Part shown: in pieces, positions 8,900 through 46,015 of the stretch
Numbering within the stretch: position 1 is the stretch's first letter
Layout of the letters: each line of letters opens with the position of its first letter
Source: Kiritimatiellales bacterium
GTDB taxonomy: Bacteria > Verrucomicrobiota > Kiritimatiellia > Kiritimatiellales > Tichowtungiaceae
Reading direction: 5' to 3'
DNA: 64,000 nt
NCBI GenBank assembly: GCA_041661845.1
Contig: JBAZTQ010000001.1
Coordinates: 11,361 to 75,360 of the forward strand
Position numbers and translations under genes: made by a program
Notes under the pieces: model-generated
What the model saw: the letters and a program-made list of their open reading frames with translations, nothing else
What the model was told of the DNA's origin: nothing
Database searches by the model: none

Positions 8900-8950
8900 A
8901 TTACCAATCTTTATTTATGAGATTTAACAACGGGTTATACTGTATTCCGG

Positions 8951-10187: not shown

Positions 10188-10229
10188 ACCGGCTCCGCCG
10201 GAGGCGTCGCCCCACCAATCAATGCGAAG

Positions 10230-10499: not shown

Positions 10500-10567
10500 A
10501 CTTGTAATTAAAATATGGCCGCACAATTTGGCGTGCAATCGGGAAGACCGGAAGTTAAAACCGCCGC

Positions 10568-12486: not shown

Positions 12487-12504
12487 AATAGACGGGGATG
12501 CCGA

Positions 12505-12534
12505 TTGACACTTCCGTCAGCGCCGTGCTAAAAG
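12505..12534 (+). promoter_or_regulatory. Candidate sigma-70-type promoter upstream of the DksA-like gene
   Basis: TTGACA (12505-12510), an 18-nt spacer, then TAAAAG (12529-12534), about 57 nt upstream of the ATG at 12591. Pattern match only. Confidence 0.3.
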
Positions 12535-12590
12535 CCCCCCCTCATTTTTCCGCAGGTATGGCAATTTTGGATAACGGAAGGGCTTTGCGA

Positions 12591-13190: not shown

Positions 13191-13202
13191 GGAGAAGACG
13201 GT

Positions 13203-13685
13203 ATGCTGGTACTCATTCTGGGTCTGGTCGTTATTGTGCTCGATCAGTTGACCAAGCTATGGGTGCGCGCAGACTTCATTTACGGCGACGACCCGCAATC
13301 CGTTATTCCCGGCTTTTTCAATCTGGTCTACGTCCGCAACGAAGGTGCGGCGTGGGGCATGTTCGGCGGACAGCAGGCACTGCTGGTGCTTCTCTCGATT
13401 GGTGTCCTCATCGCGCTGGCGGTCTACCACCGCAAACTGCTCAACCCGACGCTCGACCACCGCATCGCGCTGGGACTGATGGTCGGCGGCATTTGCGGAA
13501 ACCTGATCGACCGTGTGCGCGTCGGCTGGGTTACTGACTTTCTCGATTTCTACATCGGTTCTTACCACTGGCCGTCTTTCAACGTCGCCGATTCCGCCAT
13601 TTGCATTGCCGTCGGCATCTATCTGCTTTCCTCGCTTTGGCATACCCGCCATCCGTTGAAAAACGCCGCGAATGAATCCAAATAG
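13203..13685 (+). CDS. lspA: Lipoprotein signal peptidase (signal peptidase II)
   Basis: 160 aa. The motifs NEGAAWGMF and FNVADSAI are characteristic of LspA. Confidence 0.9.
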   Translation: MLVLILGLVVIVLDQLTKLWVRADFIYGDDPQSVIPGFFNLVYVRNEGAAWGMFGGQQALLVLLSIGVLIALAVYHRKLLNPTLDHRIALGLMVGGICGNLIDRVRVGWVTDFLDFYIGSYHWPSFNVADSAICIAVGIYLLSSLWHTRHPLKNAANESK

Positions 13686-30243: not shown

Positions 30244-30935
30244 TTATAGTTCTTCCAGAATATTCAAAACCTGCCCTGCGGCCTGCTTCCAGCTCAACCG
30301 GGCATTGTAATCATCGAAAGCTTTCATCGCCAGTATGCGGTATTCGTACGGGTTGCTGAAGAGCTGTCCGATGCATTCTGCATAACGTCCCGCCGCTTCC
30401 GGATCAAAGCAGCAGCCGTTAATTCTTTCATGCACCGCCGTGGGAATGCCGCCGGTGTTTGAGGCGGCAACGGGCAGGGCGAAACTGCCGGCCTCCGGAA
30501 AAATATGGCCGAAACACTCGGCCCGGCACGGCTGAATCAGAAAATGGGCATTGCGATAGAGTTTGTTCCATCCGGGCGCGTTCATCCGGCTTGGCGGGCG
30601 AAAGAAAGCCCGCGCTTTTTACAAAATCCGGAACCCGTGCCATGTGCTTTGCCGGATCGGTTCCCAGAAAAGCAATCTCTGTCCGGAATCTCTGCGCATT
30701 CAGAATTTCCACGGCCTTGATGGCGGTATCGCCGCCTTTACGCTTCCACTCCACGCCGGTAAAAAGCAGGCGGCAGGCGGTGTGCAGATATTGCGCAGCG
30801 GTGCGAGATAGTGAAAACCGTCCGAATCTGCCTTGAGATGCAAAGCGATGTTTTCCGCTGCGCTGTGAATTCCGACAGCGCCCGGCTTGCGCGTTTCGGC
30901 GGACTGCCGGACATCCAGATGATGTGCAAAGGCCA
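30244..30935 (-). pseudogene. Glycosyltransferase family 4 (GT1-fold) remnant, 5'-truncated and frameshifted
   Basis: GT4 C-terminal-domain sequence is split over frames. The first piece is ...LLFTGVEWKRKGGDTAIKAVEILN...AFLGTDP...GFLSPAKPDERARMEQ. After a 1-nt frame change near 30556-30571 it continues as ...KLYRNAHFLIQPCRAECFGHIFPEAGSFALPVAASNTGGIPTAVHERINGCCF. A further frame change lies near 30795-30815. Only about 230 codons remain after the GT2 stop. Confidence 0.6.
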
Positions 30936-30938
30936 GAT

Positions 30939-32033
30939 TCACCGGTTGATCTCCCCGCTGGTGGTGCGGGTGTCGCGCCACAGTTTTTTAAGTTTTCCGC
31001 GGCAGAGCATATTCAGTGCCGACAGGAATTGAAGCGAGTCGAGCAGGACTTGAATTGCCAGCACCGGCAGATAGGCCGCTTTTTTGGAAGCACCGGAATT
31101 ACGGAACCGGATGAAGCGGGTCGCAATGAGAATCCGGTAAATGCGGATGTAGTCCCGGTTTTTAATTTTATCGGCAATCAGCTGGCGCGACCAGTCCGGT
31201 GCGGTGCGGTCCAGATTTTCAATCAGCGCGGCGGCATCCGGCGCATCCGTCAGATGCTGTTGCAGATATTCCCAGATCCAGCGGTGGATAATGTAGCCCG
31301 CGATCTGCCGCCGGTGTGTGGCCAGTACGTCGGGCAGACGGGTGTACGCTTCAAAAACGTGCGAAGCGGTGTCGGCCATCACCAGCCGGCGTGCCGCGTC
31401 TTCGGGCTCGGTGAGAAAGTTTGATACCGCCATCTTTTTTATAAAGCCGTCTTCAACGATGATCTGTTCGGGAATCCGGAGACGGCGCAGCCAGGCGGCG
31501 CGCGCGCAGTAAAGCTGTCCGCAAAGCTGGCCGGAAGCCGACTGGTTGATCCGTGCGCTGTGCATTGAAATCTGGTCGAGCAGGCTGTAGCGCTGTTTAA
31601 ATACGATATGTTTGACCGGCAGGTCGGTGCAGATGAATGCCTCCGGATTCTGCACCAGCTTATCGAGCATGTTACTGAGCGTGTCGGGCATGTATATCTG
31701 GATGTCGGCATCGACCATAAAAATGACGTCGGACTGCGGATCGGCCAGTTCATGGACGAATACATTCCATGCATTGGTTTTTCCCGGACGCTGCAACGAA
31801 TGAACCCGCCAGCGAAGGTTTTCCGGATGATTGAGTTTTTCGGCGGCAGCCAGCATCGCGCCGCTGGCGGCCAGTGTTGTATTGTCGGTGCAGCCGTTCG
31901 GCACGCAGATCAGTTCAACCTGATGTCCGCTCTGCCCGAGATTGCGCAGGAGACTCTGTGCAAAAACGCTGTGAATGGTCGAGCGGATGCTGCTCTCTTC
32001 ATTCCACGCCAGAATTCCGATGCTGATTTTCAT
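30939..32033 (-). CDS. Glycosyltransferase family 2
   Basis: MKISIGILAWNEESSIRSTIHSVFAQS...ICVPNGCTDNT...FMVDADI (the DxD region). It starts 4 nt after the PPTase stop. Confidence 0.8.
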   Translation of the reverse strand: MKISIGILAWNEESSIRSTIHSVFAQSLLRNLGQSGHQVELICVPNGCTDNTTLAASGAMLAAAEKLNHPENLRWRVHSLQRPGKTNAWNVFVHELADPQSDVIFMVDADIQIYMPDTLSNMLDKLVQNPEAFICTDLPVKHIVFKQRYSLLDQISMHSARINQSASGQLCGQLYCARAAWLRRLRIPEQIIVEDGFIKKMAVSNFLTEPEDAARRLVMADTASHVFEAYTRLPDVLATHRRQIAGYIIHRWIWEYLQQHLTDAPDAAALIENLDRTAPDWSRQLIADKIKNRDYIRIYRILIATRFIRFRNSGASKKAAYLPVLAIQVLLDSLQFLSALNMLCRGKLKKLWRDTRTTSGEINR

Positions 32034-32037
32034 AGAA

Positions 32038-32739
32038 TTAAAAACTTCGCAGGTTGACCGGAACCGGCGGAGCTTCAGAAACTACCGCCGCCGCATAGCC
32101 GGAATCAATTTTCAATGTTTGGAAAAACCACTGTCCACCGCTTCCGATATCCGGAGAAAACGGTTTTCCGCCGACCGGCACGGCGAAGGTGTTGAGGTTT
32201 TTATAGATGCCGGCGCCCAGCGCCTTTACATACGCCTCTTTTTTGGCCCAGATTTCAAAAAAACCGTCAGCCGGATTTTCCAGCGATTGAAAAAACAGCT
32301 GTTCTTCCGGCGCAAACCACCTTTTGGCGATGGTTGCCATATTCAGTCCGGTGCGCCGGAATTCAATATCTACGCCGACTGCCCGCCCGGCGGTGACGGC
32401 AATCAGCAGGCGGTCGCGGGAGTGTGATACGTTGAATTCCAGACTGCCGTCTTTCAAAAACGGTTTACCCTGAGCATTCCGGTTGAACTGCAGCGCGGAC
32501 GGATTGGTGTTCAGGCAGTCGGCCAGAACCCGGCGCAGCAATCCGCGACTCAAAATGAAGCCGTTGGCATCGTCCGGTTTGATGAATTTGGCTGCGCGTT
32601 CCAGTTCTTCACCGGTCAGCAGGCTGCGGCACAGGTCTCTATCATGCTGGTGGTCGGGCAGACGGATGTTCCAGACCTCGATCGATTTTCTAAAAGTTTC
32701 CATATTGTTCTTCATCAAAACCGGCGCTTTATATAGCAT
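32038..32739 (-). CDS. 4'-phosphopantetheinyl transferase, Sfp type
   Basis: ...FNVSHSRDRLLIAVT..AVGVDIE... and ...EIWAKKEAYVKALGAG.... It is divergent from the NRPS gene. The start could instead be the ATG at 32715. Confidence 0.85.
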   Translation of the reverse strand: MLYKAPVLMKNNMETFRKSIEVWNIRLPDHQHDRDLCRSLLTGEELERAAKFIKPDDANGFILSRGLLRRVLADCLNTNPSALQFNRNAQGKPFLKDGSLEFNVSHSRDRLLIAVTAGRAVGVDIEFRRTGLNMATIAKRWFAPEEQLFFQSLENPADGFFEIWAKKEAYVKALGAGIYKNLNTFAVPVGGKPFSPDIGSGGQWFFQTLKIDSGYAAAVVSEAPPVPVNLRSF

Positions 32740-32771
32740 TCGAACTCCAGTGACGCGAGTACCGGATACCT

Positions 32772-35700
32772 ATGAATTTAAAAGACGACCAGACGCTGAT
32801 TGCCCGGTTTATCAGACAGGCCGCCGAACATCCGGGCCTCGCCGCTGTCCGTTACGGCGAAACCGTTATCTCATACGCCGAACTGAATCGCCGCTCACTG
32901 GAGCTTGCCCGGGTGTTGCGTGCGAACGGAGCGGGGCGCGATGTGCCGGTTGCCATCTGTCTGGAGCGCTCGCCGGAGCTGATTATTGCAATACTGGCGG
33001 TTCTGCGTGCCGGCAGCGCTTATTTGGCGCTCGATCCCGTTTATCCGCAGGAACGCCTTATGTTTATGCTGGCGGACAGCGGCGCGCCGGTTGTGATCAC
33101 GACAGCGGCGCGCCGGTCTCATTTCATTGCCGGTGCCGCGGTTGTTGCACCGGATGAATCGTTGCCGTTTTCAGCTGACTGGGAACTGCCGGAAACTGAT
33201 GATCTCGCCTACGTTATTTATACCTCCGGCTCCACCGGAAAACCGAAAGGGGTGCTTTGTCCCCATCGCGGCGCGCTCAATATGCTTGATGATGCGCAGC
33301 ACCGCCGCCCGCTCGGCCTTGACGACGTGTGCAGCTGGTGGACCGGCGTTGGTTTTGATGTTTCCGTCTATGAAATTTTTTCGCCGCTCATTTGCGGGGC
33401 TGCGCTGTTTATCATGCCGGATGAAATCCGTCTGGATGCTGCCAGATTAATGGATTGGCTCTGTGCAAAAAAGATCACTTCCGCTTATATCCCGCCGGCC
33501 ATGATCGCCGATCTGGAAATCTGGACGCGCGAGCATTCCGGGCATAGCCGCCTGCGCCGCCTGCTTACCGGTGTCGAACCGGTTCCGGAACGGCGGCTGA
33601 TGAATATTGCCCGCGCTGTGCCTGAGCTGTGTATCATCAACGGCTACGGCCCGACCGAGGCCGCAGTTTATTGCACCTGCTATTGCGTGGACGTTTCCGG
33701 CGACCCGCACCGTAGCACGCCGATCGGCAAGGCACTTGAGGGCGTTGAAATTTTTCTGTTCAACAGCCGGATGGAACCCGTTGCCGGCGGTGAAGAGGGC
33801 GAAATCTATATCGGCGGCGTGCAGGTGGCGCGCGGGTACCTGAACTGTCCCCGCCTGACGGCGGAACACTTCCTTGAAACACCGTACGGGCGGCTCTACC
33901 GCACCGGCGACCGGGCCGTGCGGCTGCCCGGCGGCAATCTGCTGTTTTCCGGACGCACGGACCGGCAGATAAAAATTCTCGGCTGCCGCGTGGAGCCCGG
34001 CGAAATTGAATCCGCACTTTGCCGGATCGACGGGGTGCGCGAAGCGGTGGTGGCGGTTTGCGAAGATATTCCCGGCATCCAGCGCCTCGTCGGCTATTAC
34101 ACCATACAGGGAGCCTGCACCCTTACGGACGATAAAATACGCCGCTCGCTTGAACGTGAACTGCCGGCATATATGATTCCGTCGCTGTTTATCCGGCTGA
34201 CGCATATTCCGCTCACGCCCAACGGTAAAACCGACCGCAAGGCGCTGCCCCCGCCGGCCCCCGCCGCTCTCCGGCAATTGCGCGCCGGGGAGTTCAAGCC
34301 GCCGGTTTCGGCAACCGAGAAGACGGTCGCAGAGCTGTTCGCAGCGGTACTGAAGACCGGCCCGGCCGGATTGAACGACCACTTTTTTGCACTCGGCGGT
34401 CACTCGCTGCTGGCCACGCAGCTGGCGTCGAAAATACAGACCGAGCTGCGGGTGGATGTTTCGCTCAGGGATATTTATGAAAATCCGGCGGCGGGACAGC
34501 TTGCCGCTTTGATCAGCTCCCGTCACAGCACAGGAACCGTTTCCGGCGACATTCCTCTTGCCGCCGGGCGTTCTTCATATCCGCTGACACCGTCGCAGCG
34601 TACCATGTGGATGCTTCATCAGTCTGACCGTTCGGGCATTCTGTCTAATATTCCCGAAGTGGTTCATCTGCGCGGCCCGCTGAATATTGAAGTGATGGAA
34701 CGTGCGTTCAACGAAGTTATCCGGCGCCACGACTCGCTGCGTATGGTTTACACCATGGAAAAAGGCGAAATGGTGCAGCGCCCGCTCGACAAAGTTCATG
34801 TGCCCGTCAAGTTCACGGATTTGAGCGGGCTCGATGCCGCCGAACGTGACCGCCGCGCAGCGGAAATGCGGCTGAAAAACGGCCGCCGTATTTTTGATCT
34901 TTCCGAAGGCCCGCTCATTTATGCTGAATTGGTCAAGCTGGCCGAAAACTATTTTCAGCTTTTCTTTAACATTCATCACATCGCTGCTGACGGCTGGGGC
35001 ATCAGCCTGTTTAACACGGAATTCGCTGAACTTTATGAGGCATTTCTCGATGGCCGTCCATCGCCGCTGCCGCCGGTCGGCCGGCAGTATTCCGATGTCG
35101 CCGCATGGCTTGATGAACGCATCCGGAGCGGCGCGCTGCAATCGCAGCTTGATTACTGGAAAGAAAAGCTGGCTGCACCGCGTCCCGATCTCCATTTCCC
35201 TCTCGATCACAAACGGCCTGAAGTTTCTGCGCACCGCGGTACGCGTCATGCTTTCGTCATTTCGCCGGACATCACTAAGGCGCTCACGGCGCTGGGCCGC
35301 CGCGAAAGCGCTTCGCTGTTTATGGTGCTGTCCGCCGTCTGGCAGACGCTGCTGCATCGCGCCACCGGCTCGGCCGACGTCATTACCGGCACCGCTATCG
35401 CCAACCGCAACCACCCGCAGACCGAAAAAATCATCGGCACTTTTATCAACGCACTCTCATTGCGCACTGATTTCACCGGCGCACTTTCATTTTCCGCCGT
35501 GCTTGACAGAGTACGGCGCGCCGCCCTCGAAGCTTACGCACAGCAGGATATACCGTTCGAAAAAGTCATGGAGGCCGTCAATGACGGAACGCACCATCCT
35601 GTTTTCCGCAACTCGCTCATTCTGCATAACATGGCGCTGCCGGCCAAACAGTTTGCCGGCCTCACACTGACGGATGATGAAGTCGGCAACGGCACGTCCA

Positions 35701-38700
35701 AAATGGACATGCTGCTCTACTTCATCGAGCGCGACGGGCAGCTGGAAGGGCAGCTGGAATATGATGCGGAACTTTTCGATGCCGCCACCGCCGAACAGAC
35801 GGCGGCCGATTTTTTGATGCTGGCGCGGCAGGCGGTCAAAGATCCGTGCCGTCCGCTCGGCGACTATCTGCGGACGGGCGGCGAAGAGGCACCAACCTGT
35901 TTTGTAATCGGCGAGGGTTCCCTGTGTCTGCGCTGCACCGAAGTGCTGCGCCGCCGGGGCCTGCGGGTGCTCGGACTTATTTCGCCTGATACCGCCAACC
36001 GCCGCCGGGCGAAAGAAAAGGGTGTGCCGTGGCATCATCCGGATGAAGGGTTCGTCAAAATTCTTTCTGCGCAGCCGTTCGATTTTCTCTTCAGCATCGT
36101 CAACAGTTTCATTCTCAAGCCGGAGGTGCTTGCGCTGCCGCGCCGCTGTGCCATCAATTATCACGACGCGCCGCTGCCGCGCTATGCCGGGGTTTATTCC
36201 ACCGCGTGGGCCATTATCAACCGCGAGCGGTTCCACGGTATCAGCTGGCATTTGATGGCGGATGAGGTGGACGCGGGCGACCTGCTCAAGCAGCGTACCG
36301 TGAAAATTTTTGAAAACGACACTTCGTTCACGCTTAACGCCCGCTGCTACGACACAGCCATTGAAGCACTCAGCGAACTGGCGCTGGAACTGGTCGAAGG
36401 GCGCGAAATCCGTACGCCGCAGGATCTGCGCAAACGCAGCTATTATCCGCTTTATAAACGGCCGGTTTACGGCGGTATGATCGACTGGAGCCGCCCGCAG
36501 GCCGAAACCGATGCACTGCGCCGCGCGCTTGATTTCGGGAATCAGCCTAACGATCTCGGTCTTCCAAAAGTACTGTTTGGCGGCGAACTCTATGTGCTTA
36601 AATCCGACGGCACCATGTTTACCCTGGACGGCGATCCGACTGAGTTTCGCCTTTCCGCGGTCGGCGAGTCGGCCGCCTGGGTTGTCAATGAACCGTTGTT
36701 TTTAAACCTTGGAAAAAAGCTGGAAGCGCTGAATGCTGAACTGGCCGGGCATGAACATTTCTGGGTGCGCTGTTTCGAAAACCTCCAGCCTTTGGAAATC
36801 CCCGCCGGTATTGACCGTGCGAACCATCACTATACGCTTACCGACTTGCCGTTATTTCTGTGTTTCCTTTCCCGTTTCTGTTCACAGGAACATTTCACTG
36901 CCGGGTGGAAAACCGAAACACCGGTGCCGGAATTTTCCGCCGATATTGTTCCCCTTCATGTCGAGCTGAATACCAATGAGTTGCTGGCGGATAATCTGTT
37001 CCGCGCGGAAAAGTCGCTTGAAACCTGCCGGAAGCGGAAAACCTATGTGCGCGACCTGTTCCAGAGGTTTCCGTCGCTGCGCAAGCCGCCGGTTTACCAT
37101 GTTTTACTTGGTGAAAACGAAGTGCGCTGCCCGGCTGAAATATGGGAGCACTTTCGCGCCTTCCGCCAGGCAGCAGACCTCCGTCAGCCGCTCTATGCTC
37201 AATCGGTGCTGACGGTACACGATCGGCGTGATCTCGAAAAATTCCAGGTGTGCACTCCCGGTTTCGATGAAACCCGCTGCATCCACGAGCTCTTCGAGGC
37301 ACAGGCTGAAAAGACACCGCGCGCGACAGCCGTTGAGGGAGCGGATAAAAAACTGACCTATGCTGAACTTAATTTGCGGGCCGATGCGCTGGCGGTGCGG
37401 TTGCAGGCACTGGGAGTCACGCCCGACACACCGGTCGGCCTTTTTGTAAATCGCTCGCCCGAAATGTGCATTGGTATTCTTGGTATTCTCAAAGCGGGCG
37501 GCGCCTATGTTCCGCTCGATCCCGACTATCCAGCGGACCGCCTCGAATTTATCATGGGCGACATGGCTATGCCGATGATCGTCACCGTCGAAGCGCTCAG
37601 CGAACGGGTTGAGGCGGCGGGACGTGCAGTTGTTTGCATCGACCTGATTAAAGACGCCGGAACTAAACCGGACGTCCGTGTCACAGGCTCCAATCTGGCA
37701 TACATCTTCTACACGTCCGGTTCCACCGGCAAACCGAAGGGTGTGATGGTGGAACACCGCAATGTGGTGAACCACTGTCTGGCCTCGGTTCAAACGTATG
37801 GCATCGGTGCCAAAGACCGCGTCCTTCAGTTTTTCTCGATGAACTTCGACGGCTCGGTCGAAGAGCTTTTCCCGGCGTGGGCTTCCGGCGGTACGGTGGT
37901 GCTGCGCAGTAATGAACTGTCCAGTTCGGTTTCAGAGTTTGAAGAATTTATTGCGCGCCGGAAAATCACTGTCGCCGATCTGCCGACGGCCTACTGGCAC
38001 GAATGGGTGCGCAACCTGCGCGCTGTGCCGCAAATTCTGCGCGCCGTCATTATCGGCGGCGAAAAAGTTTCAGCGGAACTCTGCCGCGTCTGGCTGCAGA
38101 AAGACGGCGGCAAGGTTCGGCTTTTCAATACCTACGGCCCGACGGAATGCACGGTGGTGGCCACCGTTCATGAACTGACCGGTGCTGTCACCGGCGAAGT
38201 GCCGATCGGTCTGCCGATTGCCGGCACGGCGCTCTACGTGGCGGACACGCGGCAACAGCTTGTACCGCTGGGTATGCCCGGTGAACTGCTCATCGGCGGC
38301 GAAGGCGTTGCACGCGGTTATCTCAACCGGCCCGATCTGACCCGCGAAAAATTCATCCGCAATCCGTGGGGCGACGGAATGCTTTACCGCACCGGCGACC
38401 TCGTTTGCCGTCAGCCGGACGGAAGTATCGGCTTTATGGGGCGTGTGGATAATCAGGTTAAGATCCGCGGTTTCCGCATTGAGCCCGACGGAATCGCCGC
38501 CGTATTGGAGCAGCACAGCGACATTGCTCAGGCGGTTGTGACAGCCCGTGACGATCTTTCGGAGCAGAAGGAACTGGCCGCTTACTACATTCCGGAACCG
38601 GGCCTTTCGCCGTCGGTCAGCGAATTGCGTGCTTTTCTCGCCGCCAACCTGCCTGAGTACATGGTTCCTGTTGCTTTCATGGAACTGGATGAATTTCCGG

Positions 38701-39818
38701 TTGCGCCCGGCGGAAAGGTCGACCGGAAGGCGTTACCATCGCCGGTAAAATCTGTGACCCGATCGTTTAATAACTATGCGGAGCCCGTGACAATTCAGCA
38801 AAAAACGCTGGCGGAAATCTGGTCGGCGGTGCTCGGTATGGATCCGGTCGGCATCCACGATAATTTCTTTGATCTCGGCGGCCATTCGCTGCTGGCCATT
38901 CAGCTGGTCGAACGGATTCTTTCCTCCGGACTGTCGCTCACCGTCGCACAGCTCTTTCAATATCCAACGATTGCACAAATGGCTGAAATCATCGGAACAC
39001 GCGGTGATACGGAATATAAATCGCTGGTCTGCCTCAAGGAAGGTGTGCCGGGCCGTGTGCCGTTATTCCTGCTGCACAGTGCGCCGGGCGATCTGCTGGG
39101 TTATTCGAATCTGGTACACAATCTGCCGCCGGAGCAGCCGGTATACGGCTTTCAGTCGCTCGGGCTGATTGATCCGGACAATGTCCATTCAACCATTCCG
39201 GAAATGGCCGCTCATTATGTTTCCGTGCTGCGCGAATTTCTGCCGGCCGGGCCGTATCTTCTCGGCGGCTGGTGCTATGGCGGCTATGTCGCCATGGAAA
39301 TGGCCCGCCGGCTGATGGAGCAGGGATGCACTGTGAAACTGCTCGCGCTGATCGACGCATGGGCCTATCCGCCCGCCGAGCGGCGAATCGCTTTCTATTG
39401 GCGGCGCCTCCGGCTCATGCGCATCATCGGACTCCGGCAATGGCTGGATATCATTTTTAAACGCGCCATGAATTTGTTTCATGATGAAGCCGCCGACGCC
39501 GTCAAAATGCTCGACGGCGTGCAGGCCACGGAGGGGGTGCTGGCTAACCGCGAAGAGGTTTACCGCCGCAACCGCGAAGCCGCGCTGCGCTACAACCCGC
39601 GGTTTTATCCCGGTCACGTCGCGCTTTTCCGTTCAGACGAGCTGGCGGCCTGGTTTCTTCCTGATATGACTATGGAATGGGCGGTGCTCACGGAAGATCA
39701 GGATATCTATCTGATTCCCGGCGGGCACCGCGATATGCTGCGCGAACCTGCTGTCAAGGTGCTCGCCGCGCGTCTCAACGACAGTATCGAAAAAGCATTA
39801 CAACAAAGCCGGAGCTGA
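32772..39818 (+). CDS. Bimodular non-ribosomal peptide synthetase: A1-T1-C-(formyltransferase-like)-(unassigned ~245 aa)-A2-T2-TE
   Basis: A1: LAYVIYTSGSTGKPKGV, NGYGPTE, YRTGD, GRTDRQIKILGCRVEPGEIE, NGKTDRKAL. T1: FFALGGHSLLA (Ser545). C: NIHHIAADGWG (aa 735-741). Fmt-like region: INYHDAPLPRYAG...EVDAGDLL. A2: LAYIFYTSGSTGKPKGV, NTYGPTE, YRTGD, GRVDNQVKIRGFRIEPDGI, GGKVDRKAL. T2: FFDLGGHSLLA (Ser2039). TE: LFLLHSAPGD, GGWCYGG, IPGGHRDML. Confidence 0.97.
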   Translation: MNLKDDQTLIARFIRQAAEHPGLAAVRYGETVISYAELNRRSLELARVLRANGAGRDVPVAICLERSPELIIAILAVLRAGSAYLALDPVYPQERLMFMLADSGAPVVITTAARRSHFIAGAAVVAPDESLPFSADWELPETDDLAYVIYTSGSTGKPKGVLCPHRGALNMLDDAQHRRPLGLDDVCSWWTGVGFDVSVYEIFSPLICGAALFIMPDEIRLDAARLMDWLCAKKITSAYIPPAMIADLEIWTREHSGHSRLRRLLTGVEPVPERRLMNIARAVPELCIINGYGPTEAAVYCTCYCVDVSGDPHRSTPIGKALEGVEIFLFNSRMEPVAGGEEGEIYIGGVQVARGYLNCPRLTAEHFLETPYGRLYRTGDRAVRLPGGNLLFSGRTDRQIKILGCRVEPGEIESALCRIDGVREAVVAVCEDIPGIQRLVGYYTIQGACTLTDDKIRRSLERELPAYMIPSLFIRLTHIPLTPNGKTDRKALPPPAPAALRQLRAGEFKPPVSATEKTVAELFAAVLKTGPAGLNDHFFALGGHSLLATQLASKIQTELRVDVSLRDIYENPAAGQLAALISSRHSTGTVSGDIPLAAGRSSYPLTPSQRTMWMLHQSDRSGILSNIPEVVHLRGPLNIEVMERAFNEVIRRHDSLRMVYTMEKGEMVQRPLDKVHVPVKFTDLSGLDAAERDRRAAEMRLKNGRRIFDLSEGPLIYAELVKLAENYFQLFFNIHHIAADGWGISLFNTEFAELYEAFLDGRPSPLPPVGRQYSDVAAWLDERIRSGALQSQLDYWKEKLAAPRPDLHFPLDHKRPEVSAHRGTRHAFVISPDITKALTALGRRESASLFMVLSAVWQTLLHRATGSADVITGTAIANRNHPQTEKIIGTFINALSLRTDFTGALSFSAVLDRVRRAALEAYAQQDIPFEKVMEAVNDGTHHPVFRNSLILHNMALPAKQFAGLTLTDDEVGNGTSKMDMLLYFIERDGQLEGQLEYDAELFDAATAEQTAADFLMLARQAVKDPCRPLGDYLRTGGEEAPTCFVIGEGSLCLRCTEVLRRRGLRVLGLISPDTANRRRAKEKGVPWHHPDEGFVKILSAQPFDFLFSIVNSFILKPEVLALPRRCAINYHDAPLPRYAGVYSTAWAIINRERFHGISWHLMADEVDAGDLLKQRTVKIFENDTSFTLNARCYDTAIEALSELALELVEGREIRTPQDLRKRSYYPLYKRPVYGGMIDWSRPQAETDALRRALDFGNQPNDLGLPKVLFGGELYVLKSDGTMFTLDGDPTEFRLSAVGESAAWVVNEPLFLNLGKKLEALNAELAGHEHFWVRCFENLQPLEIPAGIDRANHHYTLTDLPLFLCFLSRFCSQEHFTAGWKTETPVPEFSADIVPLHVELNTNELLADNLFRAEKSLETCRKRKTYVRDLFQRFPSLRKPPVYHVLLGENEVRCPAEIWEHFRAFRQAADLRQPLYAQSVLTVHDRRDLEKFQVCTPGFDETRCIHELFEAQAEKTPRATAVEGADKKLTYAELNLRADALAVRLQALGVTPDTPVGLFVNRSPEMCIGILGILKAGGAYVPLDPDYPADRLEFIMGDMAMPMIVTVEALSERVEAAGRAVVCIDLIKDAGTKPDVRVTGSNLAYIFYTSGSTGKPKGVMVEHRNVVNHCLASVQTYGIGAKDRVLQFFSMNFDGSVEELFPAWASGGTVVLRSNELSSSVSEFEEFIARRKITVADLPTAYWHEWVRNLRAVPQILRAVIIGGEKVSAELCRVWLQKDGGKVRLFNTYGPTECTVVATVHELTGAVTGEVPIGLPIAGTALYVADTRQQLVPLGMPGELLIGGEGVARGYLNRPDLTREKFIRNPWGDGMLYRTGDLVCRQPDGSIGFMGRVDNQVKIRGFRIEPDGIAAVLEQHSDIAQAVVTARDDLSEQKELAAYYIPEPGLSPSVSELRAFLAANLPEYMVPVAFMELDEFPVAPGGKVDRKALPSPVKSVTRSFNNYAEPVTIQQKTLAEIWSAVLGMDPVGIHDNFFDLGGHSLLAIQLVERILSSGLSLTVAQLFQYPTIAQMAEIIGTRGDTEYKSLVCLKEGVPGRVPLFLLHSAPGDLLGYSNLVHNLPPEQPVYGFQSLGLIDPDNVHSTIPEMAAHYVSVLREFLPAGPYLLGGWCYGGYVAMEMARRLMEQGCTVKLLALIDAWAYPPAERRIAFYWRRLRLMRIIGLRQWLDIIFKRAMNLFHDEAADAVKMLDGVQATEGVLANREEVYRRNREAALRYNPRFYPGHVALFRSDELAAWFLPDMTMEWAVLTEDQDIYLIPGGHRDMLREPAVKVLAARLNDSIEKALQQSRS
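35898..36540 (+). other. Formyltransferase (Fmt/GART N-terminal domain)-like domain embedded in the NRPS (aa ~1043-1256)
   Basis: CFVIGEGSLCLRC...FDFLFSIVNSFILKPEVLALPRRCAINYHDAPLPRYAGVYSTAWAIINRERFHGISWHLMADEVDAGDLL. Asn1129, His1131 and Asp1167 are spaced exactly like Asn108/His110/Asp146 of E. coli Fmt, as I remember that numbering. Confidence 0.7.
39021..39815 (+). other. Type I thioesterase domain of the NRPS with Cys in the nucleophile position (GWCYG)
   Basis: VPLFLLHSAPGDLLGY...PYLLGGWCYGGYVAMEMA...LALIDAW...IPGGHRDML. TGC at 39273-39275 encodes Cys2168, where GxSxG normally has Ser. Confidence 0.85.
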
Positions 39819-42800
39819 GCTGTTGCGACGGTGCTGTTTGAAAAAGTTCCACATCACGGTGTTGGCATCAAAAGTGGCGGTTTTTCCGTAGGTCTTTTCC
39901 GGCAGCTGCCCGGCGCGGCCCGGCCAGGTGTGTCCTCCGTTTTCGATGCGGCAGAAGATTACTTCGGCGTGATTGCGGGGACAGGAATATTCCGTGCGGG
40001 TAACGTGCGTTCCGCTGTCAGCGTCCTGAGTAAGTTCGGTCTGAACAGGTACTTTGTCGCAACCGTTCTTTTCGGCCCACCACGCGATGTATTGATTGGC
40101 GGAAAGACCGGAGCCGCGGTGAGTGCCCGCGCTTCCGCCGCTGTAATAGGCAAACGGATCGGCGGTGCCGTGAAAATAGAGAACCGGCACCGGAACGGCG
40201 GGTTTCCAGTCATCGGCCGCGCGGGTACCGATGGTTCCGGCAACCGGCGCGATGGCGGCGATTCGCCCTGAAAGTTCAACGGCGATCCGGTTGGCCATGC
40301 TGGCACCGTTGGAGTAGCCCGTCACATAAACGCGTTCGGGGTCGGCGTGAAAGTGGCGGACGGCTTGATCAATCAGCGCGGAAATAAAAGCGGTGTCGTT
40401 GACTTCGGGAACGCGCCCGTCGTTCCAGTACAGCTTGCCTTTGTACAGGCCGACGGCATTCGGATAGGCGGCAATAAAACCGTTCTGATCCGCTGTGTCG
40501 GACATTCCCGTCAGCTTTTCCATTTCGCTGCCGGTCATCTGCCCGCCGTGCAGGACGATCACCATCGGCAGCGGCCCGCCGGAAGTCTTTCCGGACGGCA
40601 GGTGAAAATGGCAGGTGCGCGGGCGGCCGTCAACCGTCAGCGTGCAGTCGGAGACAGGTTGAGGGGTTTTTCCGGAAAGCGGGTGGCGCTTGAAAAAGTC
40701 CCAGATAAAACCGGTGGCATCGAGTTTGTCAGTTGTTTGGCCGACCCAGCTTTCCGGCAGCAGACTCTTGCCGCCGGCCCAGGTATGCCCCTGACCGGCG
40801 ACGGTCACAAAAACGATCGCCGGATTTTCCGGCACGGAACCGAAGGTTTCGATGCGGACGCCGTTGTTTTCGCTTGTCGTTTCCGCCGTTTCGGGACAGC
40901 CGATGGCCTTGGCCCATTTCACGATGGAGTCCCGTACCGGCGGTTTTGGCTTGGCCCGCATCGAATCACTGCTGCCGCCGAATTTCATCTTCGGTACGCC
41001 GCCGGCGAGGAGATTGAGCGGGTCGTCTGCGCCCGTGAGATAACACATGGGAAGGGGGCGCTCCAGTCTGTCCGGCTCAATCCAGCACGCGCCGGCATCA
41101 GGCGCAATGGCGGCGATCCGCTTTGATGCCGCAGCGCCGAACCGGAACGCCATCGAAGCGCCGTTGGAAAAGCCGGTGACAAAAATCCGCCGCGAATCCA
41201 CAGCAAATTTTGCACACAGCTCGTCGAGCACCGCGTTGAGAAAAGCGACGTCATCAACCGGCGTCTGGCCGGGATAAAAACGGTCGGAACCGTCATTCCA
41301 GAGCTGCGGATTGCGAGAAAAACTGCCCGGCTTTGAAGGATCGCGGGCCAGCGCATCGGGAAAGGCGGCAAGGAAATTTTCCTGATCGGCCTTGCCGCCC
41401 CAGCCGGTTTCCTGCGCGGCGGCTTTGCCGGTTCCGCCGCCGCCGTGCAGCATGACCACCGCCGGAACCGCTTTCTTTCCGTCATACTGCGGCGGCACGT
41501 GAACAGTGTAATGCCGGTTGAGTTCTCCGCACCGGAGAGTGAATTCATGATCACCGGGAGGCACCGCCGCTTTTTCCGGCTGCTGCGGAGTGCTGATCAG
41601 TGCTTCAACTTGCGATTTTGTCATGCAGCGGGTTTCCGGATAATAAACGCCCATCCGTTTGCGGACAGCATCCGGGTTGCGGTTGCGTACGGAAAGATCG
41701 GCCTCCTGCCAGGTGACGAGCTGCGGCGCGTATTTCCAGACATTGGAAGCGGTGGACATAATGCGCATATTGATGCTCAGCGTTGAGCCGGCCGGCCAGT
41801 CTCGCCAGGTGATGCCGTTGGCTTCTGTTGCACAGGCCGGACGATCCTCTTTGCGCCCGATCACGATGGTGTAAAAACCGTTCGAACCGGTCGCAACCGT
41901 TTCGTCGGTGACGTTGACAACCGGTGTCAGGCGGGTCGGGCTTCCGGCGTGCATGGAAAGATTCCAGTAGCGCAGTTCATTGTCCGGCTCCATGACCGGA
42001 TTGCCCTGAAGAGTGTGCGGCACGCGCGGCATTTTTCCGCGGAAGACCAGCATCTGTCCGGGGCCGATGTTGGCGGAGCTGACCAGATAGGTGTTGTAGA
42101 TGTGGTGATCGCTGACGTGTTCATCATTGCCGGGTGGCGGCGTATCCGGGCCCATCTCTCCGAAGGCCCGGCGGTAGCGGGCGGACAGTTCACAGCGGCC
42201 TCCGGCAAGGTTGTCTTTTCCGAGGTAGTCTTTGAAATAGGTAACGAGCCACGGCGTCTGGAACACCTTGTATAGCATGATTTGTCCATCCGGCCCGTCG
42301 AGCAGCCGGTGGGTTTCCGGATTGTACGTGCCGGGTTGTCCACCAGCCTGCACGGCTTTGCGGGCATAGTCGCGCAGCAGTTCGTCGGCTTCTTTTTCTT
42401 TGAGGGAGAGACCGTCAGCCAGGGCAGGATTTTCCTGAAGCGAATAGCCGGCCACGAATTTACGGAGGTTCACCGGCATGGCGCGGCTGACGGGTGCCAG
42501 TACCGGTTCTTTACCCGGAAGCTGCAGGCGGATCACCGGCGGCTCCACGCCGCCGTACGGATCGTAATGATCAGGCAGATACATGCGCATATAAACCACC
42601 GGGCCGCGCGCTTTCGGACTGCCGAAAAGTTTGCCCGGCTCCGTCGTCGCGGTTCCGCCGATGCGCAGGTTGCCGGGTGCGCGGTACGGCGGAACCGCCG
42701 CCGCGCCGTTCAGCAGCACCGGATCGCCGTCACGCAGTTCAAAAGTGATATGAAAGTGGCGCTTTTGCGCGTTGCGGTCGGCACCGGGCCGGAAGGGATT

Positions 42801-43241
42801 GATGCTGCCGGGGTCGGGGACGATGTCTTCGTCCAGCAGATGGATTTCCGGAAGACCCGTGCCGTCGCTGGCGACCAGCGCTTTGCCGCTCCACGGCGCG
42901 GTCACCTGAAAACTCATCATGCGGGCGTGCGGGAAATCGCCTTCGATCAGAATTTTTGTTCCTTCGAGGAGCGGCTTATCGAACCGCCACAGATAATAGG
43001 TGTTGTCCGGCGGCTCGCCTTTGGCGTGGTTGAGATAACCCGATGCTTTCCAAGCTTCCGGGCTTTCCGCGAAAATTTTAAACCACTGGGCGCGCAGATT
43101 TTTTGCGCCGGCCCAGTCGGCAGGCCATGTGATCTGCTCCGGACGGCCGGTGTCAGTGGTTCCCCACTGTCCGGGAACCGGCTTTGCTTCGGCACCGAAA
43201 GCGATGAGAACGAGGCTGAGAATGGCAGAAATGTATTTCAT
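39798..43241 (-). CDS. Large secreted protein: ~560-aa N-terminal region of unknown function plus two tandem PHB-depolymerase/LpqC-type (CE1-like) esterase domains
   Basis: Signal peptide MKYISAILSLVLIAFGAEA. Esterase 1: VVMLHGGGGTGKAAA...VTGFSNGASMAFRF. Esterase 2: MVIVLHGGQMTGSEM...VTGYSNGASMANRIA. I chose the ATG at 43241; the track ORF extends to 43307. The 3' end overlaps the NRPS 3' end by 21 nt (convergent). Confidence 0.8.
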   Translation of the reverse strand: MKYISAILSLVLIAFGAEAKPVPGQWGTTDTGRPEQITWPADWAGAKNLRAQWFKIFAESPEAWKASGYLNHAKGEPPDNTYYLWRFDKPLLEGTKILIEGDFPHARMMSFQVTAPWSGKALVASDGTGLPEIHLLDEDIVPDPGSINPFRPGADRNAQKRHFHITFELRDGDPVLLNGAAAVPPYRAPGNLRIGGTATTEPGKLFGSPKARGPVVYMRMYLPDHYDPYGGVEPPVIRLQLPGKEPVLAPVSRAMPVNLRKFVAGYSLQENPALADGLSLKEKEADELLRDYARKAVQAGGQPGTYNPETHRLLDGPDGQIMLYKVFQTPWLVTYFKDYLGKDNLAGGRCELSARYRRAFGEMGPDTPPPGNDEHVSDHHIYNTYLVSSANIGPGQMLVFRGKMPRVPHTLQGNPVMEPDNELRYWNLSMHAGSPTRLTPVVNVTDETVATGSNGFYTIVIGRKEDRPACATEANGITWRDWPAGSTLSINMRIMSTASNVWKYAPQLVTWQEADLSVRNRNPDAVRKRMGVYYPETRCMTKSQVEALISTPQQPEKAAVPPGDHEFTLRCGELNRHYTVHVPPQYDGKKAVPAVVMLHGGGGTGKAAAQETGWGGKADQENFLAAFPDALARDPSKPGSFSRNPQLWNDGSDRFYPGQTPVDDVAFLNAVLDELCAKFAVDSRRIFVTGFSNGASMAFRFGAAASKRIAAIAPDAGACWIEPDRLERPLPMCYLTGADDPLNLLAGGVPKMKFGGSSDSMRAKPKPPVRDSIVKWAKAIGCPETAETTSENNGVRIETFGSVPENPAIVFVTVAGQGHTWAGGKSLLPESWVGQTTDKLDATGFIWDFFKRHPLSGKTPQPVSDCTLTVDGRPRTCHFHLPSGKTSGGPLPMVIVLHGGQMTGSEMEKLTGMSDTADQNGFIAAYPNAVGLYKGKLYWNDGRVPEVNDTAFISALIDQAVRHFHADPERVYVTGYSNGASMANRIAVELSGRIAAIAPVAGTIGTRAADDWKPAVPVPVLYFHGTADPFAYYSGGSAGTHRGSGLSANQYIAWWAEKNGCDKVPVQTELTQDADSGTHVTRTEYSCPRNHAEVIFCRIENGGHTWPGRAGQLPEKTYGKTATFDANTVMWNFFKQHRRNSSAPALL

Positions 43242-43254
43242 CAAACTTTTCCTT

Positions 43255-43689
43255 TTACTGTTCAGTACCGGAGGATGACGGGTTCCACAGTTTCCGCAGA
43301 CGCTCAAACCGTTCGTCCAGTTTCTGCACCTGTTCCGGTGTAAGCAGCTTGTTGATCTCCAGCCGGGCCGCTTGCAGCCGCATCAAACCCCTCATCCGGC
43401 TTCTGGCCTGCAGCACCCGCAGATCATCGGTTGTCTGTGAGACAATCGTCTGCACTGCGGTTTTCTGTTCGCCGGTCAGATGGAGATATTTGTCCATGCG
43501 GGCGATAGTACGATCGACCGCCTTTTCCGGTTCGCGCGCCGCTTCCCGCATCCGGTGGACAATGGCCGAAACGGTCAGTGCGCTGCCGAGCACCGTACCG
43601 CCGGTAAAAATTCCCAGCATGAGTAGTACAGTCCACAGCCGGCGGCGGGCCGGGCGCGGAAGAGATTCAGTTGATTTGTCCTTTTTCAT
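43255..43689 (-). CDS. Periplasmic LTXXQ-motif protein (Spy/CpxP family), membrane-anchored
   Basis: One N-terminal TM (LWTVLLMLGIFTGGTVLGSAL) and two LTxxQ motifs (LHLTGEQKTAV and LLTPEQVQKL). I chose the ATG at 43689. Confidence 0.7.
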   Translation of the reverse strand: MKKDKSTESLPRPARRRLWTVLLMLGIFTGGTVLGSALTVSAIVHRMREAAREPEKAVDRTIARMDKYLHLTGEQKTAVQTIVSQTTDDLRVLQARSRMRGLMRLQAARLEINKLLTPEQVQKLDERFERLRKLWNPSSSGTEQ

Positions 43690-43709
43690 TTCGATTCCTT
43701 TCCGCCGGG

Positions 43710-43946
43710 TCATCCGGCAAACATTGCAAAACAGGTGCTCCACGGATCGGTAAACAGGTCGAGCAGCGGCACGGTCAAAACTGCGGCGGCGGCTGAACAG
43801 GCAAGGGTTGTAACAGCCGGCCAGACCGGTGCACGGCGTGTCCGGCGGAGCCGGGGGATTACACGGTCGGCGATATCGAGCGGGAAGGCGGCGTCCATGC
43901 GGGCGCAGGCGGCCAGTTGTTCTACAGCTTTGAGGCGGTCATTCAT
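43710..43946 (-). CDS. Small single-pass membrane protein, possible anti-sigma factor
   Basis: 78 aa with one TM (VWPAVTTLACSAAAAVLTVPLL). Its start overlaps the upstream stop (ATGA). It lies in an ECF-sigma operon but has no zf-HC2 motif. Confidence 0.4.
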   Translation of the reverse strand: MNDRLKAVEQLAACARMDAAFPLDIADRVIPRLRRTRRAPVWPAVTTLACSAAAAVLTVPLLDLFTDPWSTCFAMFAG

Positions 43947-45178
43947 TTTATGTCTCCTTGTTTCAATTCACAGGAACCGGCTTTGCGTCCTGTGAGTGTG
44001 CGGAAATGTTCACCGAGTCCGTTCGGAGTTCCGGCACGGATGGCGGCGAAGGCCCTTGGATTCAGACGGCGCGTGATCTCATGATAGGGAATCCGGTCAA
44101 GCTCCGCAGAGTAGTCGAGATCGGCATAGAAATAACTGCTCCAGTAAAAGGAGAGCAGGCTCACCTGTTCGTGGCGGGCGAGATCGAACATGAGCGTCAT
44201 GAATTTACGATCCAGCGGTTGCCAGAACGAGAAAGCATCCCGACGGAAAACCTCCGCAGACGCAGCCACGTTTTCGCTGCCCGGACGCGCTGTTTTGTAA
44301 AGCCAGGATTCGTCGATACAGCATTGTTTCCCGGCGGCGCGGGCGATGCGGGCCGTCTGCCGGGCATTGTCCATGAATTTTGCGTTGACCGGGTAAACAT
44401 GAACGGCGAGGTAGTCCAGTTCCGGAATCGCGGCAAGACTCCGCGCGAAATCCAATGAGCTCCAGCTTCCTGACCCGGCACCGCACAGGATGCCCGTGTG
44501 ATCCCAGCCTTGGAGAGCGTTTTGCACAACCTCAGCAATCACAGCAGGTGTGTTAAGCTCGCGCAGGCCGGTCAGTTTGGCGTGAGTGTCGGGTTCCGTG
44601 AGCATATCGAGGTAATCGGGTTTCAGTTCGCGGGCCACCCGCATAACCATCAGGCGGTAATCGGCCTTGAATTTTTCGATGGTGAGATCGCGGTAAATAC
44701 CCTGAAACGGACTGAAGGGCGTATCAGCAAAGATAACCGAGACATGAGGCATGACCTTGATGCCGAGTTTATGCGCTTCGTCCACAACCTGCCGGTAGAA
44801 GGCCAGATATTCATCATTGCGGGGAAAGTCCGGCGTCAGCAGCGGATATTGAAGCGCGAACTTTACGCAGTCCACTCCCAGTTCGCGGAAGCTGCGCAGG
44901 GTGGTGACCACCGCCGGCATGGTTTCCGGCATCAGGAGCGCTTCGCCGCGGTTGGAATTCGCCACAAGCAGATCCGTGCAAAGCAGCGGGCCGTGCTGAT
45001 CCGGCTTCGTACCTGCTGCGGACTCAATCCGGAGCTGTTCATCGAGACTTCGCTCCAGCGTGCTGTACAGCGCGGTGTAGGCGGCAGGCACAGCATTCTG
45101 TGCAAAGCCCGGGCCGCCGCCGGGCATCGCCGCAGAAAACAGAAGTACGCCTAATAACCGGGTGTAATTCATCTGCAT
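43943..45178 (-). CDS. Secreted TIM-barrel glycoside-hydrolase-like protein (clan GH-A-like), putative
   Basis: Signal peptide MQMNYTRLLGVLLFSAAMPGG. ...DYLDMLTEPD... could be an NEP-like acid/base motif and ...CCIDESWLY... a candidate nucleophile Glu. The family assignment is tentative. Confidence 0.5.
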   Translation of the reverse strand: MQMNYTRLLGVLLFSAAMPGGGPGFAQNAVPAAYTALYSTLERSLDEQLRIESAAGTKPDQHGPLLCTDLLVANSNRGEALLMPETMPAVVTTLRSFRELGVDCVKFALQYPLLTPDFPRNDEYLAFYRQVVDEAHKLGIKVMPHVSVIFADTPFSPFQGIYRDLTIEKFKADYRLMVMRVARELKPDYLDMLTEPDTHAKLTGLRELNTPAVIAEVVQNALQGWDHTGILCGAGSGSWSSLDFARSLAAIPELDYLAVHVYPVNAKFMDNARQTARIARAAGKQCCIDESWLYKTARPGSENVAASAEVFRRDAFSFWQPLDRKFMTLMFDLARHEQVSLLSFYWSSYFYADLDYSAELDRIPYHEITRRLNPRAFAAIRAGTPNGLGEHFRTLTGRKAGSCELKQGDIK

Positions 45179-45187
45179 ATGTCTTCC

Positions 45188-45742
45188 TTATTTGTGATGG
45201 ATAAACAACTCTCTCAGCCGGTTGCGGGCCCGGTGCAGCCGGACTTTTACCGCGGCAAGGCTCCAGCCGGTCCGGTCGGCAATCTCTTGGGTTTCGCAGT
45301 CGTCAAAATAAAACAGAGTCAGCACCAGACGATCCGCCGGATTCAACCGGGCAAGCAGATGGAACAGCATCTCCCCGGCTTCGGAGCAGGTTAAGGTGCC
45401 GGGCTCCGCCGGAAGCTCCGGCAGGTTGCCGGGCAGAGCCGTTTCCCGCTCGCGGCAGCGGGTTTGCATTTTCCAGTAGCGGTAGCCGGTACGGGTGGCC
45501 AGCCGCCGCAGCCAGTGCAGAAACGGCACTTTCCCCCGGAAGCTTTTCAGGCTCAGGTAGGCTTCCACAAAAACCTCCTGTACCAGTTCTTCGAGCACCA
45601 CGGGATCGCGCGAAAAGCGGCGCATCTGCCCGGCAATGAGATGCTGGTGTTTTACAACCAGCCGGCGGTACGCCTCGCCGTCGCCCTTCAGGCTGGCCGC
45701 GATGTCGTTCCTTTCTTCCGTATTGTCCGCATTTGTCATCAT
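45188..45742 (-). CDS. ECF-type RNA polymerase sigma factor
   Basis: Region 2: YRRLVVKHQHLIAGQMRRFSRDPVVLEELVQEVFVEAYLSL. Region 4: LNPADRLVLTLFYFDDCETQEIADRTGWSLAAVKVRLHRARNRL. I chose the ATG at 45742; the track ORF begins at a GTG at 45835. Confidence 0.85.
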   Translation of the reverse strand: MMTNADNTEERNDIAASLKGDGEAYRRLVVKHQHLIAGQMRRFSRDPVVLEELVQEVFVEAYLSLKSFRGKVPFLHWLRRLATRTGYRYWKMQTRCRERETALPGNLPELPAEPGTLTCSEAGEMLFHLLARLNPADRLVLTLFYFDDCETQEIADRTGWSLAAVKVRLHRARNRLRELFIHHK

Positions 45743-46015
45743 ACGTTCATGAATTCCGTTCCACGGCAGGCCGAATTCTGTTGCTGCCGCAGGTTCCCGC
45801 AACTCGATATCAATTGCAATGCTTCGGCTGTCCACAGTTTAATCCTCATTCTTCGCCGCTGTTACAGTAATAGTGGACGGAAAGATCCGGCAGGTTACAT
45901 TCTCCGGCAACTTTTTGTTCAACGGATTAATGGCAGAAAGGATGGCTGACGAAATTCCTTCGCACACCGGTGCGCTTTTGTTAGCTTCTTCCGCCATTAA
46001 CCCGAAGGAGTGTTT

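Follow-up and report, generated by a model that had tools for sequence, protein, structure and literature searches.

Introduction

Thioesterase (TE) domains with a Cys nucleophile make up about 2% of known TEs (PMC13288461). They draw interest because the few that have been characterised make β-lactones, β-lactams or clean macrolactams, and because engineered cyclases are improved when Ser is exchanged for Cys. In the nonribosomal peptide synthetases (NRPSs) ObiF (β-lactone) and SulM (β-lactam), the Cys nucleophile occurs together with a triad Asp relocated to a site after strand β7 ('position II', as in RifR) and a Gly at β6 (PMC6668435, PMC11298585). The Gly is residue 1173 of ObiF1 (PMC6668435) and the SulM elbow reads Q-C-N (PMC11298585). 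Besides ObiF and SulM, AB3403 is the only structurally characterised NRPS TE with a Cys, and its Asp follows β6 ('position I') (PMC11298585). Here, we describe a Cys-type TE at the C-terminal end of an NRPS from a Kiritimatiellales bacterium. The NRPS gene (32772..39818, + strand) encodes 2348 residues and lies in a 64,000-nucleotide stretch of contig JBAZTQ010000001.1, referred to throughout as the window.

A further Cys-type TE has been studied biochemically. Thus, MacB-TE cyclises its substrate via a side-chain amine and hydrolysis is undetectable; when Cys89 is replaced by Ser (C89S), acylation still occurs but hydrolysis is the only outcome (PMC13288461). MacB-TE is reported to group with Ser-type cyclases (PMC13288461) and may be an independent Ser-to-Cys lineage. 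When we searched the literature for further named Cys-TEs, the MacB paper was the only one returned. A sequence-only reading of the window had linked the few Cys-TEs that it named, ObiF and SulM, to strained rings. Such a link does not extend to AB3403, the chemistry of which is uncharacterised, or to MacB-TE and PmxB-TE, which form macrolactams.

Results

Cys2168 is the nucleophile of a canonical type I TE

The protein translated from the open reading frame (ORF) at 32772-39818 (+ strand) includes PYLLGGWCYGGYVAMEMARRL and, in the stretch around the TE elbow, GPYLLGGWCYGGYVAMEMARRL. The TE domain spans residues 2081-2348 (39012..39815, + strand). Within these limits the Pfam Thioesterase family (PF00975) matches residues 2097-2327, C-terminal to a carrier domain, with an E-value of 2.3e-24. 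Bases 39261-39284 (ctc ggc ggc tgg tgc tat ggc ggc) are in frame and encode L-G-G-W-C-Y-G-G. The Cys in this motif is Cys2168 (TGC, 39273..39275, + strand), on the elbow after strand β5. Asp2195 (GAC, 39354..39356, + strand), in the sequence LALIDAW, is found 27 residues further on and directly after strand β6. His2319 (CAC, 39726..39728, + strand), in the sequence GGHRDML, comes after strand β8. In alignments to PDB structures, the residue that pairs with Cys2168 is the catalytic Ser in the SkyXY and Pks13 TEs and the Cys of GGWCFGG in AB3403.

An AlphaFold2 model of residues 2081-2348, built from 85 sequences, had a predicted local distance difference test score (pLDDT) of 92.1 and a predicted template modelling score of 0.90. 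In this model Cys2168 (model residue 88) immediately follows a strand (82-87) and precedes a helix (89-103), which is the arrangement of a classic nucleophile elbow. Asp2195 (model residue 115) is the first residue past strand 108-114, His2319 (model residue 239) comes after strand 227-235, and residues 122-193 form a long helical lid. Neither the model nor the alignments to six solved TEs left room for a different nucleophile elbow within the domain.

Orthologous loci were collected using one genome per species, from metagenome-assembled genomes (MAGs) labelled Kiritimatiellales, Pontiellaceae, Kiritimatiellaeota or Verrucomicrobiota. The aligned codon specifies Cys in all 13 loci that cover the TE (70-86% TE identity), as TGC in nine and as TGT in four. 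Such synonymous variation around an invariant Cys excludes a base-calling error and is a mark of purifying selection. The Asp and His of the TE are likewise conserved. Seven full-length orthologues from Kiritimatiellales MAGs (61-83% overall identity) have all catalytic motifs intact; these are the adenylation (A) domain codes, HHxxxDG of the condensation (C) domain, Asn/His/Asp of a formyltransferase-like (F) domain and Cys/Asp/His of the TE.

The triad acid and histidine were also examined in more distant relatives. In the alignment column of Asp2195, an acidic residue (Asp or Glu) occupies 107 of the 122 Cys-type rows; for Ser-type rows the figure is 56 of 58. The His column contains His in all covering rows but two. 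We also considered an acid at position II. The sequence S-D-E, after β7 (model residues 208-210), is unconserved in Cys-type or Ser-type relatives; conversely, position I is conserved. Taken together, these data show that the TE is a canonical type I NRPS domain with the triad Cys2168-His2319-Asp2195, and that its Cys is a true nucleophile kept by selection. Thus, the sequence-only reading was right about the Cys at 39273-39275 and about its candidates for the Asp and His. Of the two objections that it had foreseen, a sequencing error is excluded by the orthologues, and an elbow elsewhere in the domain by the model and the alignments.

Two further features of the alignment were apparent. First, Glu fills the acid column in 56 of the 122 Cys-type rows compared to 1 of 58 Ser-type rows. 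This co-variation of Cys and Glu may be phylogenetic, or may reflect tuning of the thiol/imidazole pair. Second, some relatives lack a nucleophile at the elbow. P0123, the third-best match, has Ala (GWAYG), and P0141 and P0147 have Gly (GIGFG), with the Asp and His retained in each case. Such domains may have lost activity or may have been repurposed.

Cys is the inherited nucleophile of the TE clade

To place the TE among its relatives we used an exhaustive search, with no word index, of 1.84 billion cluster representatives (50% clusters). Cys was present in 101 of the best 150 representatives examined, most often in the form GWCYG (46) or GWCFG (31). A word-indexed search, which is biased by shared words, gave 62 Cys and 57 Ser among the best 120 matches. 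In a neighbour-joining tree of 132 sequences, with nine elbow columns masked, the TE was placed within an all-Cys clade of 81. The next node out was Cys in 82 of 83 sequences, and the whole tree required only ~10 changes of nucleophile. Judged from these sequences, Cys has been handed down within a large lineage of TEs and is not a local novelty. It is shown to be both the ancestral and the majority nucleophile of the TE clade, of which AB3403 from Acinetobacter baumannii is the only solved member. The view that Cys is rare in type I TEs, also part of the sequence-only reading, therefore stands for TEs overall (~2%; PMC13288461) and fails within the clade to which this TE belongs.

We next ran a TE-only profile, built from 21 sequences of the Cys clade, against all PDB sequences. 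The best match was AB3403, over the whole domain (E=3.3e-41), followed by the SkyXY TE (E=2.6e-32) and then by the Pks13 TE, NocB, FAS and EntF. AB3403 (4zxh) was also the Foldseek match at rank 1 for the TE model, and the top fold matches were all type I TEs. The AB3403 motifs GGWCFGG, MIDT and GDH align to the Cys, Asp and His motifs of the TE. Hence, the domain is very probably a Cys-TE of the AB3403 type and not of the ObiF/SulM type. It adds a new member to a clade that is already known though little studied. A cluster look-up of ten close relatives of the TE yielded no informative names.

Domain organisation of the synthetase

The Pfam content of the protein is two AMP-binding, two PP-binding, one Condensation and one Thioesterase domain, plus an unexpected Formyl_trans_N match (residues 1114-1202). 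The corresponding order is A1-T1-C-F-A2-T2-TE, where T is a carrier domain. Thus, the enzyme is dimodular, as had been proposed from the sequence. An exact look-up of the protein found no record.

All domains are encoded on the + strand. The A1 domain has approximate limits of 32829..34229 (residues ~20-486, with AMP-binding_C at 411-486). T1 (34299..34526) is matched by PP-binding in two stretches and its phosphopantetheine site is Ser545 (GGHS; codon 34404-34406). The C domain (PF00668; 34575..35870, residues 602-1033) has the active-site motif HHIAADGWG at residue 735, and this is kept in the orthologues. The F domain, in line with the other domains, covers residues ~1042-1284 (35895..36623). 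It is followed by a folded region of ~190 residues (36690..37271, residues ~1307-1500), most of which has a pLDDT of 80-95 in the model. There was no Pfam match at E<=10 in the 300 residues tested between F and A2; conceivably, the region derives from the C-lobe of a condensation domain. The A2 domain, recognised by Pfam, covers residues 1508-~1985 (37293..38726), and the PP-binding match to T2 extends over residues 2012-2073 (38805..38990), with Ser2039 (codon 38886-38888) as the phosphopantetheine site.

Substrates predicted from the adenylation domain codes

Specificity codes were read from alignments to GrsA. The A1 code, DVYYLGGVYK, is identical in five of seven orthologues, with one substitution each in L004 and L008. 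A full-text literature search gave no published match to this code; among the codes searched, only DGEDHGTVVK was found (PMC12283262). Because Asp235 is present, the A1 substrate is expected, from the code, to be an α-amino acid.

The A2 code, DGEDIGTVVK, is identical in all seven orthologues. It matches the published Lys code (DGEDHGTVVK) at nine of ten positions and the Orn code (DGEDHGTVTK) at eight of ten (PMC12283262). The A2 pocket is doubly acidic (Glu239 and Asp278), which fits a basic side chain. The closest single-domain relative of A2 in the PDB is A1 of ApnA, from anabaenopeptin synthesis, an A domain that activates Arg and Tyr. The predicted A2 substrate is thus a Lys/Orn-type basic residue.

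The F domain and its probable target

The F domain matches formyltransferases in the PDB and NCBIfam, and the model (pLDDT 86) adopts the ArnA/FMT/WbkC fold. Asn1129 and His1131 (AINYHDAPLP), and Asp1167 and Asp1170 (EVDAGD), are kept and are conserved in the orthologues and in 32 homologues. The motif of this F family is A-I-N-Y-H-D-A-P-L-P-R-Y-A-G, compared with the usual N-x-H-x-S-L-L-P. A C-F-A arrangement was also seen in fragments from Blastocatellia, Anaerolineales, Gemmatimonadaceae and Burkholderiales. In four relatives (P0160, P0165, P0167 and P0230) the entire A-T-C-F-A-T-TE(Cys) architecture of ~2.4 thousand residues recurs, and P0234 and P0264 are F-A-T-TE(Cys).

A locus from a Dolichospermum MAG (L013) bears on the target of F. 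Here, a separate A-T protein (2175-4052) has an A code without Asp235, and the starter is therefore predicted not to be an α-amino acid. The C-F-A-T-TE protein of the same locus (7708-13548) has the A code DTEDIGTVVK, which matches A2 at nine of ten positions. Its TE is Ser-type (GLSFG) and only 27% identical to the TE described here. Hence, in L013, F accompanies a basic-type A domain though the starter would have no α-amine, which suggests that F modifies the basic residue itself. We consider it most likely that F formylates the basic residue. If so, the product would be aa1-(N-formyl-Lys/Orn) or an isomer. The L013 genes are flanked by an isochorismatase-aldehyde dehydrogenase fusion, an isopropylmalate-dehydrogenase-like protein and a methyltransferase.

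A hydroxamate siderophore, with N-hydroxy, N-formyl Orn or Lys, was considered as the product. It was set aside because no N-monooxygenase, TonB receptor or siderophore transporter is encoded in the window. Cultured Pontiella are anaerobes.

A proposal for product release

We propose that A1-T1-C-(F)-A2-T2 would build a dipeptidyl chain, comprising an α-amino acid and then a Lys/Orn-type basic residue, and that one amine of the dipeptide would probably be formylated by the in-line F domain. The chain would pass from the phosphopantetheine thiol of T2 to Cys2168 by an energy-neutral transthioesterification. This would generate a thioester acyl-enzyme that is more reactive than the usual oxoester. 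The amine left free by F, either the N-terminal α-amine or the basic side chain, would then attack the thioester. The outcome would be an unstrained 6- or 7-membered ring, either a diketopiperazine or a C-terminal lactam.

A Cys-TE of the AB3403 type, with a canonical triad and aminolytic, unstrained release, is the best explanation as a whole, and the chances that it is right seem to us evenly balanced. The step of aminolytic release to an unstrained ring, considered separately, we place a little below even. Aminolytic cyclisation is favoured over hydrolysis because there are two candidate amines and F can cap only one. The terminal A codes of relatives point the same way. Such codes were readable in 61 Cys-type representatives, drawn from P0121-P0268 and chosen on TE sequence alone. 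Like A2, 32 of the 61 have a basic-residue code (DxE[DNQ][IV]G..K; Lys/Orn-like), and 11 are Gly-type. MacB-TE, with the same Cys/Asp(+27)/His layout, is the best biochemical precedent for aminolysis (PMC13288461).

Several observations weigh against our proposal. The product and release chemistry of AB3403 are uncharacterised (PMC11298585). Both AB3403 and the 11 Gly-type relatives end in a residue without a side-chain nucleophile, and lactam formation through a side chain is therefore no uniform feature of the clade. F probably acts on the basic side chain, and this would leave a choice between the diketopiperazine route and hydrolysis. The assignments of A domain substrates are drawn from codes of only 10 residues. 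The triad geometry was read from secondary-structure positions and conservation, not from coordinates, and the neighbour-joining tree is crude, being based on p-distances and drawn from the 150 best matches only.

Alternative routes of release

Simple hydrolysis is a possible alternative and nearly as likely as aminolysis, although we lean away from it. Here, Cys would be the inherited nucleophile of the lineage, with no special consequence, and a linear (formylated) dipeptide acid would be released. The canonical triad geometry agrees with this, as does the fact that Cys is a trait of the clade and not an adaptation specific to the locus. There are no cyclisation-related accessory genes nearby. 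Furthermore, the C-F-A-T-TE protein of L013, with its nearly identical A code, uses a Ser TE, which argues that a module of this type does not need Cys. However, at 27% identity the L013 TE belongs to another TE lineage and is not a Ser version of the TE studied here. A free amine on a dipeptidyl thioester favours cyclisation. Moreover, none of the characterised Cys-TEs that we found is a hydrolase: ObiF, SulM, MacB and PmxB, a close homologue of MacB, are all cyclases.

Transfer of the dipeptidyl moiety from Cys2168 to an external acceptor, namely a sugar or other molecule made by a neighbouring family 2 glycosyltransferase (GT2), is improbable. In sequence and fold searches, the Pks13 TE was one of the best full-length matches. 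In addition, GT2, a 4'-phosphopantetheinyl transferase (PPTase) and the NRPS form a trio that is conserved in all orthologous loci reaching far enough upstream. However, a resemblance to Pks13 is common to type I TEs as a whole, and the nucleophile of Pks13 is Ser. The link to GT2 may be one of synteny only, the whole region being syntenic housekeeping DNA, and there is no evidence of an acceptor.

Release of the kind used by ObiF and SulM had been inferred in the sequence-only reading. In such a reaction the β-substituent of the last residue would attack the Cys2168 thioester to give a β-lactone or a β-lactam. We regard this as very improbable; a product with a four-membered ring is given equally little chance, and a strained-ring product in general is unlikely. 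ObiF, SulM and the TE described here do have in common a Cys in a GxCxG-type elbow and an α/β-hydrolase TE at the NRPS end. However, the acid of the present TE is at β6, not β7, and the β6 site is occupied by Asp2195 (C+27) rather than the Gly of ObiF and SulM (PMC6668435, PMC11298585). The elbow is W-C-Y rather than the Q-C-N of SulM. Using BLASTP against the SulM TE (sequence from the supplement of PMC11298585), we obtained a match to 33 residues at the elbow only (E=0.02), and this alignment sets Gly opposite Asp2195. ObiF1 (6n8e) and SulM (8w2c) were not among the matches of the clade profile in the PDB even at E<=10, and neither was in the top 50 Foldseek matches of the TE model. The terminal residue of ObiF and SulM bears a β-nucleophile, whereas the A2 code predicts a Lys/Orn-like residue, and not diaminopropionate or a β-hydroxy amino acid. 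There is also no sulfotransferase, aldolase or hydroxylase gene in the window.

Finally, the idea that TGC is a sequencing or assembly error for TCC or AGC (Ser), or that the TE is a dead domain, has practically no chance of being correct: only the prior rarity of Cys speaks for an error, and the dead elbows of some close relatives for a dead domain, whereas thirteen independent assemblies give Cys through two different codons, and the Asp, the His and all other catalytic motifs of the synthetase are conserved.

Genomic context

The NRPS gene is divergent from a gene for an Sfp/HetI-type PPTase (32038..32739, - strand; Pfam ACPS, NCBIfam HetI-like). This is followed by the GT2 gene (30939..32033, - strand; Pfam Glycos_transf_2), a conserved neighbour of the PPTase-NRPS pair and a candidate for a functional link. 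The PPTase gene adjoins the NRPS gene in every orthologous locus that extends upstream, and GT2 adjoins the PPTase in L001, L003-L009, L012 and L015. The start codons of the PPTase and NRPS genes are 32 bp apart (32739-32772), and the spacing is similar in the orthologues (31 bp in L001). Hence, unless the starts are misannotated, both promoters must extend into coding sequence.

The surrounding genes have housekeeping roles and encode a CCA-adding enzyme, DsbD, a transketolase, a topoisomerase and an S11 carboxypeptidase, among others. No N-monooxygenase, sulfotransferase, TonB receptor or dedicated exporter gene was found near the NRPS gene. Between dsbD and GT2 there is a remnant of a GT4/Glycos_transf_1 glycosyltransferase gene (30244-30754, - strand). 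It is truncated and apparently frameshifted, and the Pfam match is confined to the C-terminal ~110 residues.

An insertion of ~6 kb (39798-45835), between the NRPS and S11 carboxypeptidase genes, is missing from the orthologous loci. It contains three ORFs. The first (39798-43307) is convergent with the NRPS gene, overlaps the NRPS stop by 21 bp, and encodes a double esterase of 1169 residues resembling polyhydroxyalkanoate (PHA) depolymerases. The esterase has two α/β-hydrolase regions, and its C-terminal part matches an extracellular short-chain PHA depolymerase (2.9e-86). The second ORF (43943-45178) has no family match, and the third (45188-45835) encodes an extracytoplasmic function (ECF) sigma factor. 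The esterase was rejected as a partner of the NRPS because it is part of the insertion and not of the orthologous loci.

Discussion

A Cys nucleophile alone is no marker of strained-ring chemistry; the position of the triad acid must be checked as well. In genome mining, the locus described here should be ranked down as a β-lactone or β-lactam candidate. It instead gives the AB3403-type clade, which has many members in metagenomes, a further example conserved across an order. Our data suggest that this TE clade is coupled, in a way that can be tested, to basic residues at the C-terminus and, in several lineages, also to an in-line F domain. The A-T-C-F-A-T-TE(Cys) enzyme recurs in several distant lineages, and is found beside the PPTase and GT2 genes throughout Kiritimatiellales. 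A broader idea, which we regard as doubtful, is that the AB3403-type Cys-TE is no chance variant of a Ser enzyme but may supply the release function in a widespread cassette, [F]-A(Lys/Orn-type)-T-TE(Cys). The thioester would be adapted to amine-capturing (lactam or diketopiperazine) release, and the product would be a conserved cyclic formyl-dipeptide. If true, the TE nucleophile and the terminal A code would together become a predictive rule for NRPS release chemistry.

How does the synthetase compare with known systems? The F domain resembles that of LgrA, the linear gramicidin synthetase, in having a formyltransferase fold fused directly before an A domain and in retaining the Asn, His and Asp. 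However, F of LgrA opens the initiation module and formylates the N-terminal α-amine, whereas F of the present enzyme is inside the second module, after C. It is also nearer to ArnA, WbkC and FMT than to LgrA, and has the variant motif N-Y-H-D-A-P-L-P-R-Y-A-G.

With respect to the TE, AB3403 (ABBFA_003403 of A. baumannii; PDB 4ZXH/4ZXI) is alike in being type I, with the Cys in G-G-W-C-[FY]-G-G, the Asp after β6 and the His after β8. Identity to AB3403 is 38% over the N-terminal 106 residues and about 24% over the whole fold alignment, the lid having diverged. AB3403 is a single C-A-T-TE module with a Gly-binding A domain (PMC10212144), whereas the Kiritimatiellales enzyme is dimodular, bears F and is predicted to end in a Lys/Orn-type residue. 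MacB-TE and PmxB-TE, of the macolacin and polymyxin B synthetases, also have a Cys-His-Asp triad. The spacing of Cys89 and Asp116 (+27) is the same as that of Cys2168 and Asp2195 (PMC13288461); this likeness is one of triad layout. MacB and PmxB act on a lipodecapeptide that is cyclised through the diaminobutyrate at position 4 (Dab4), whereas two modules would provide a dipeptide substrate here. By analogy, the present TE possibly has its chemistry in common with MacB and PmxB.

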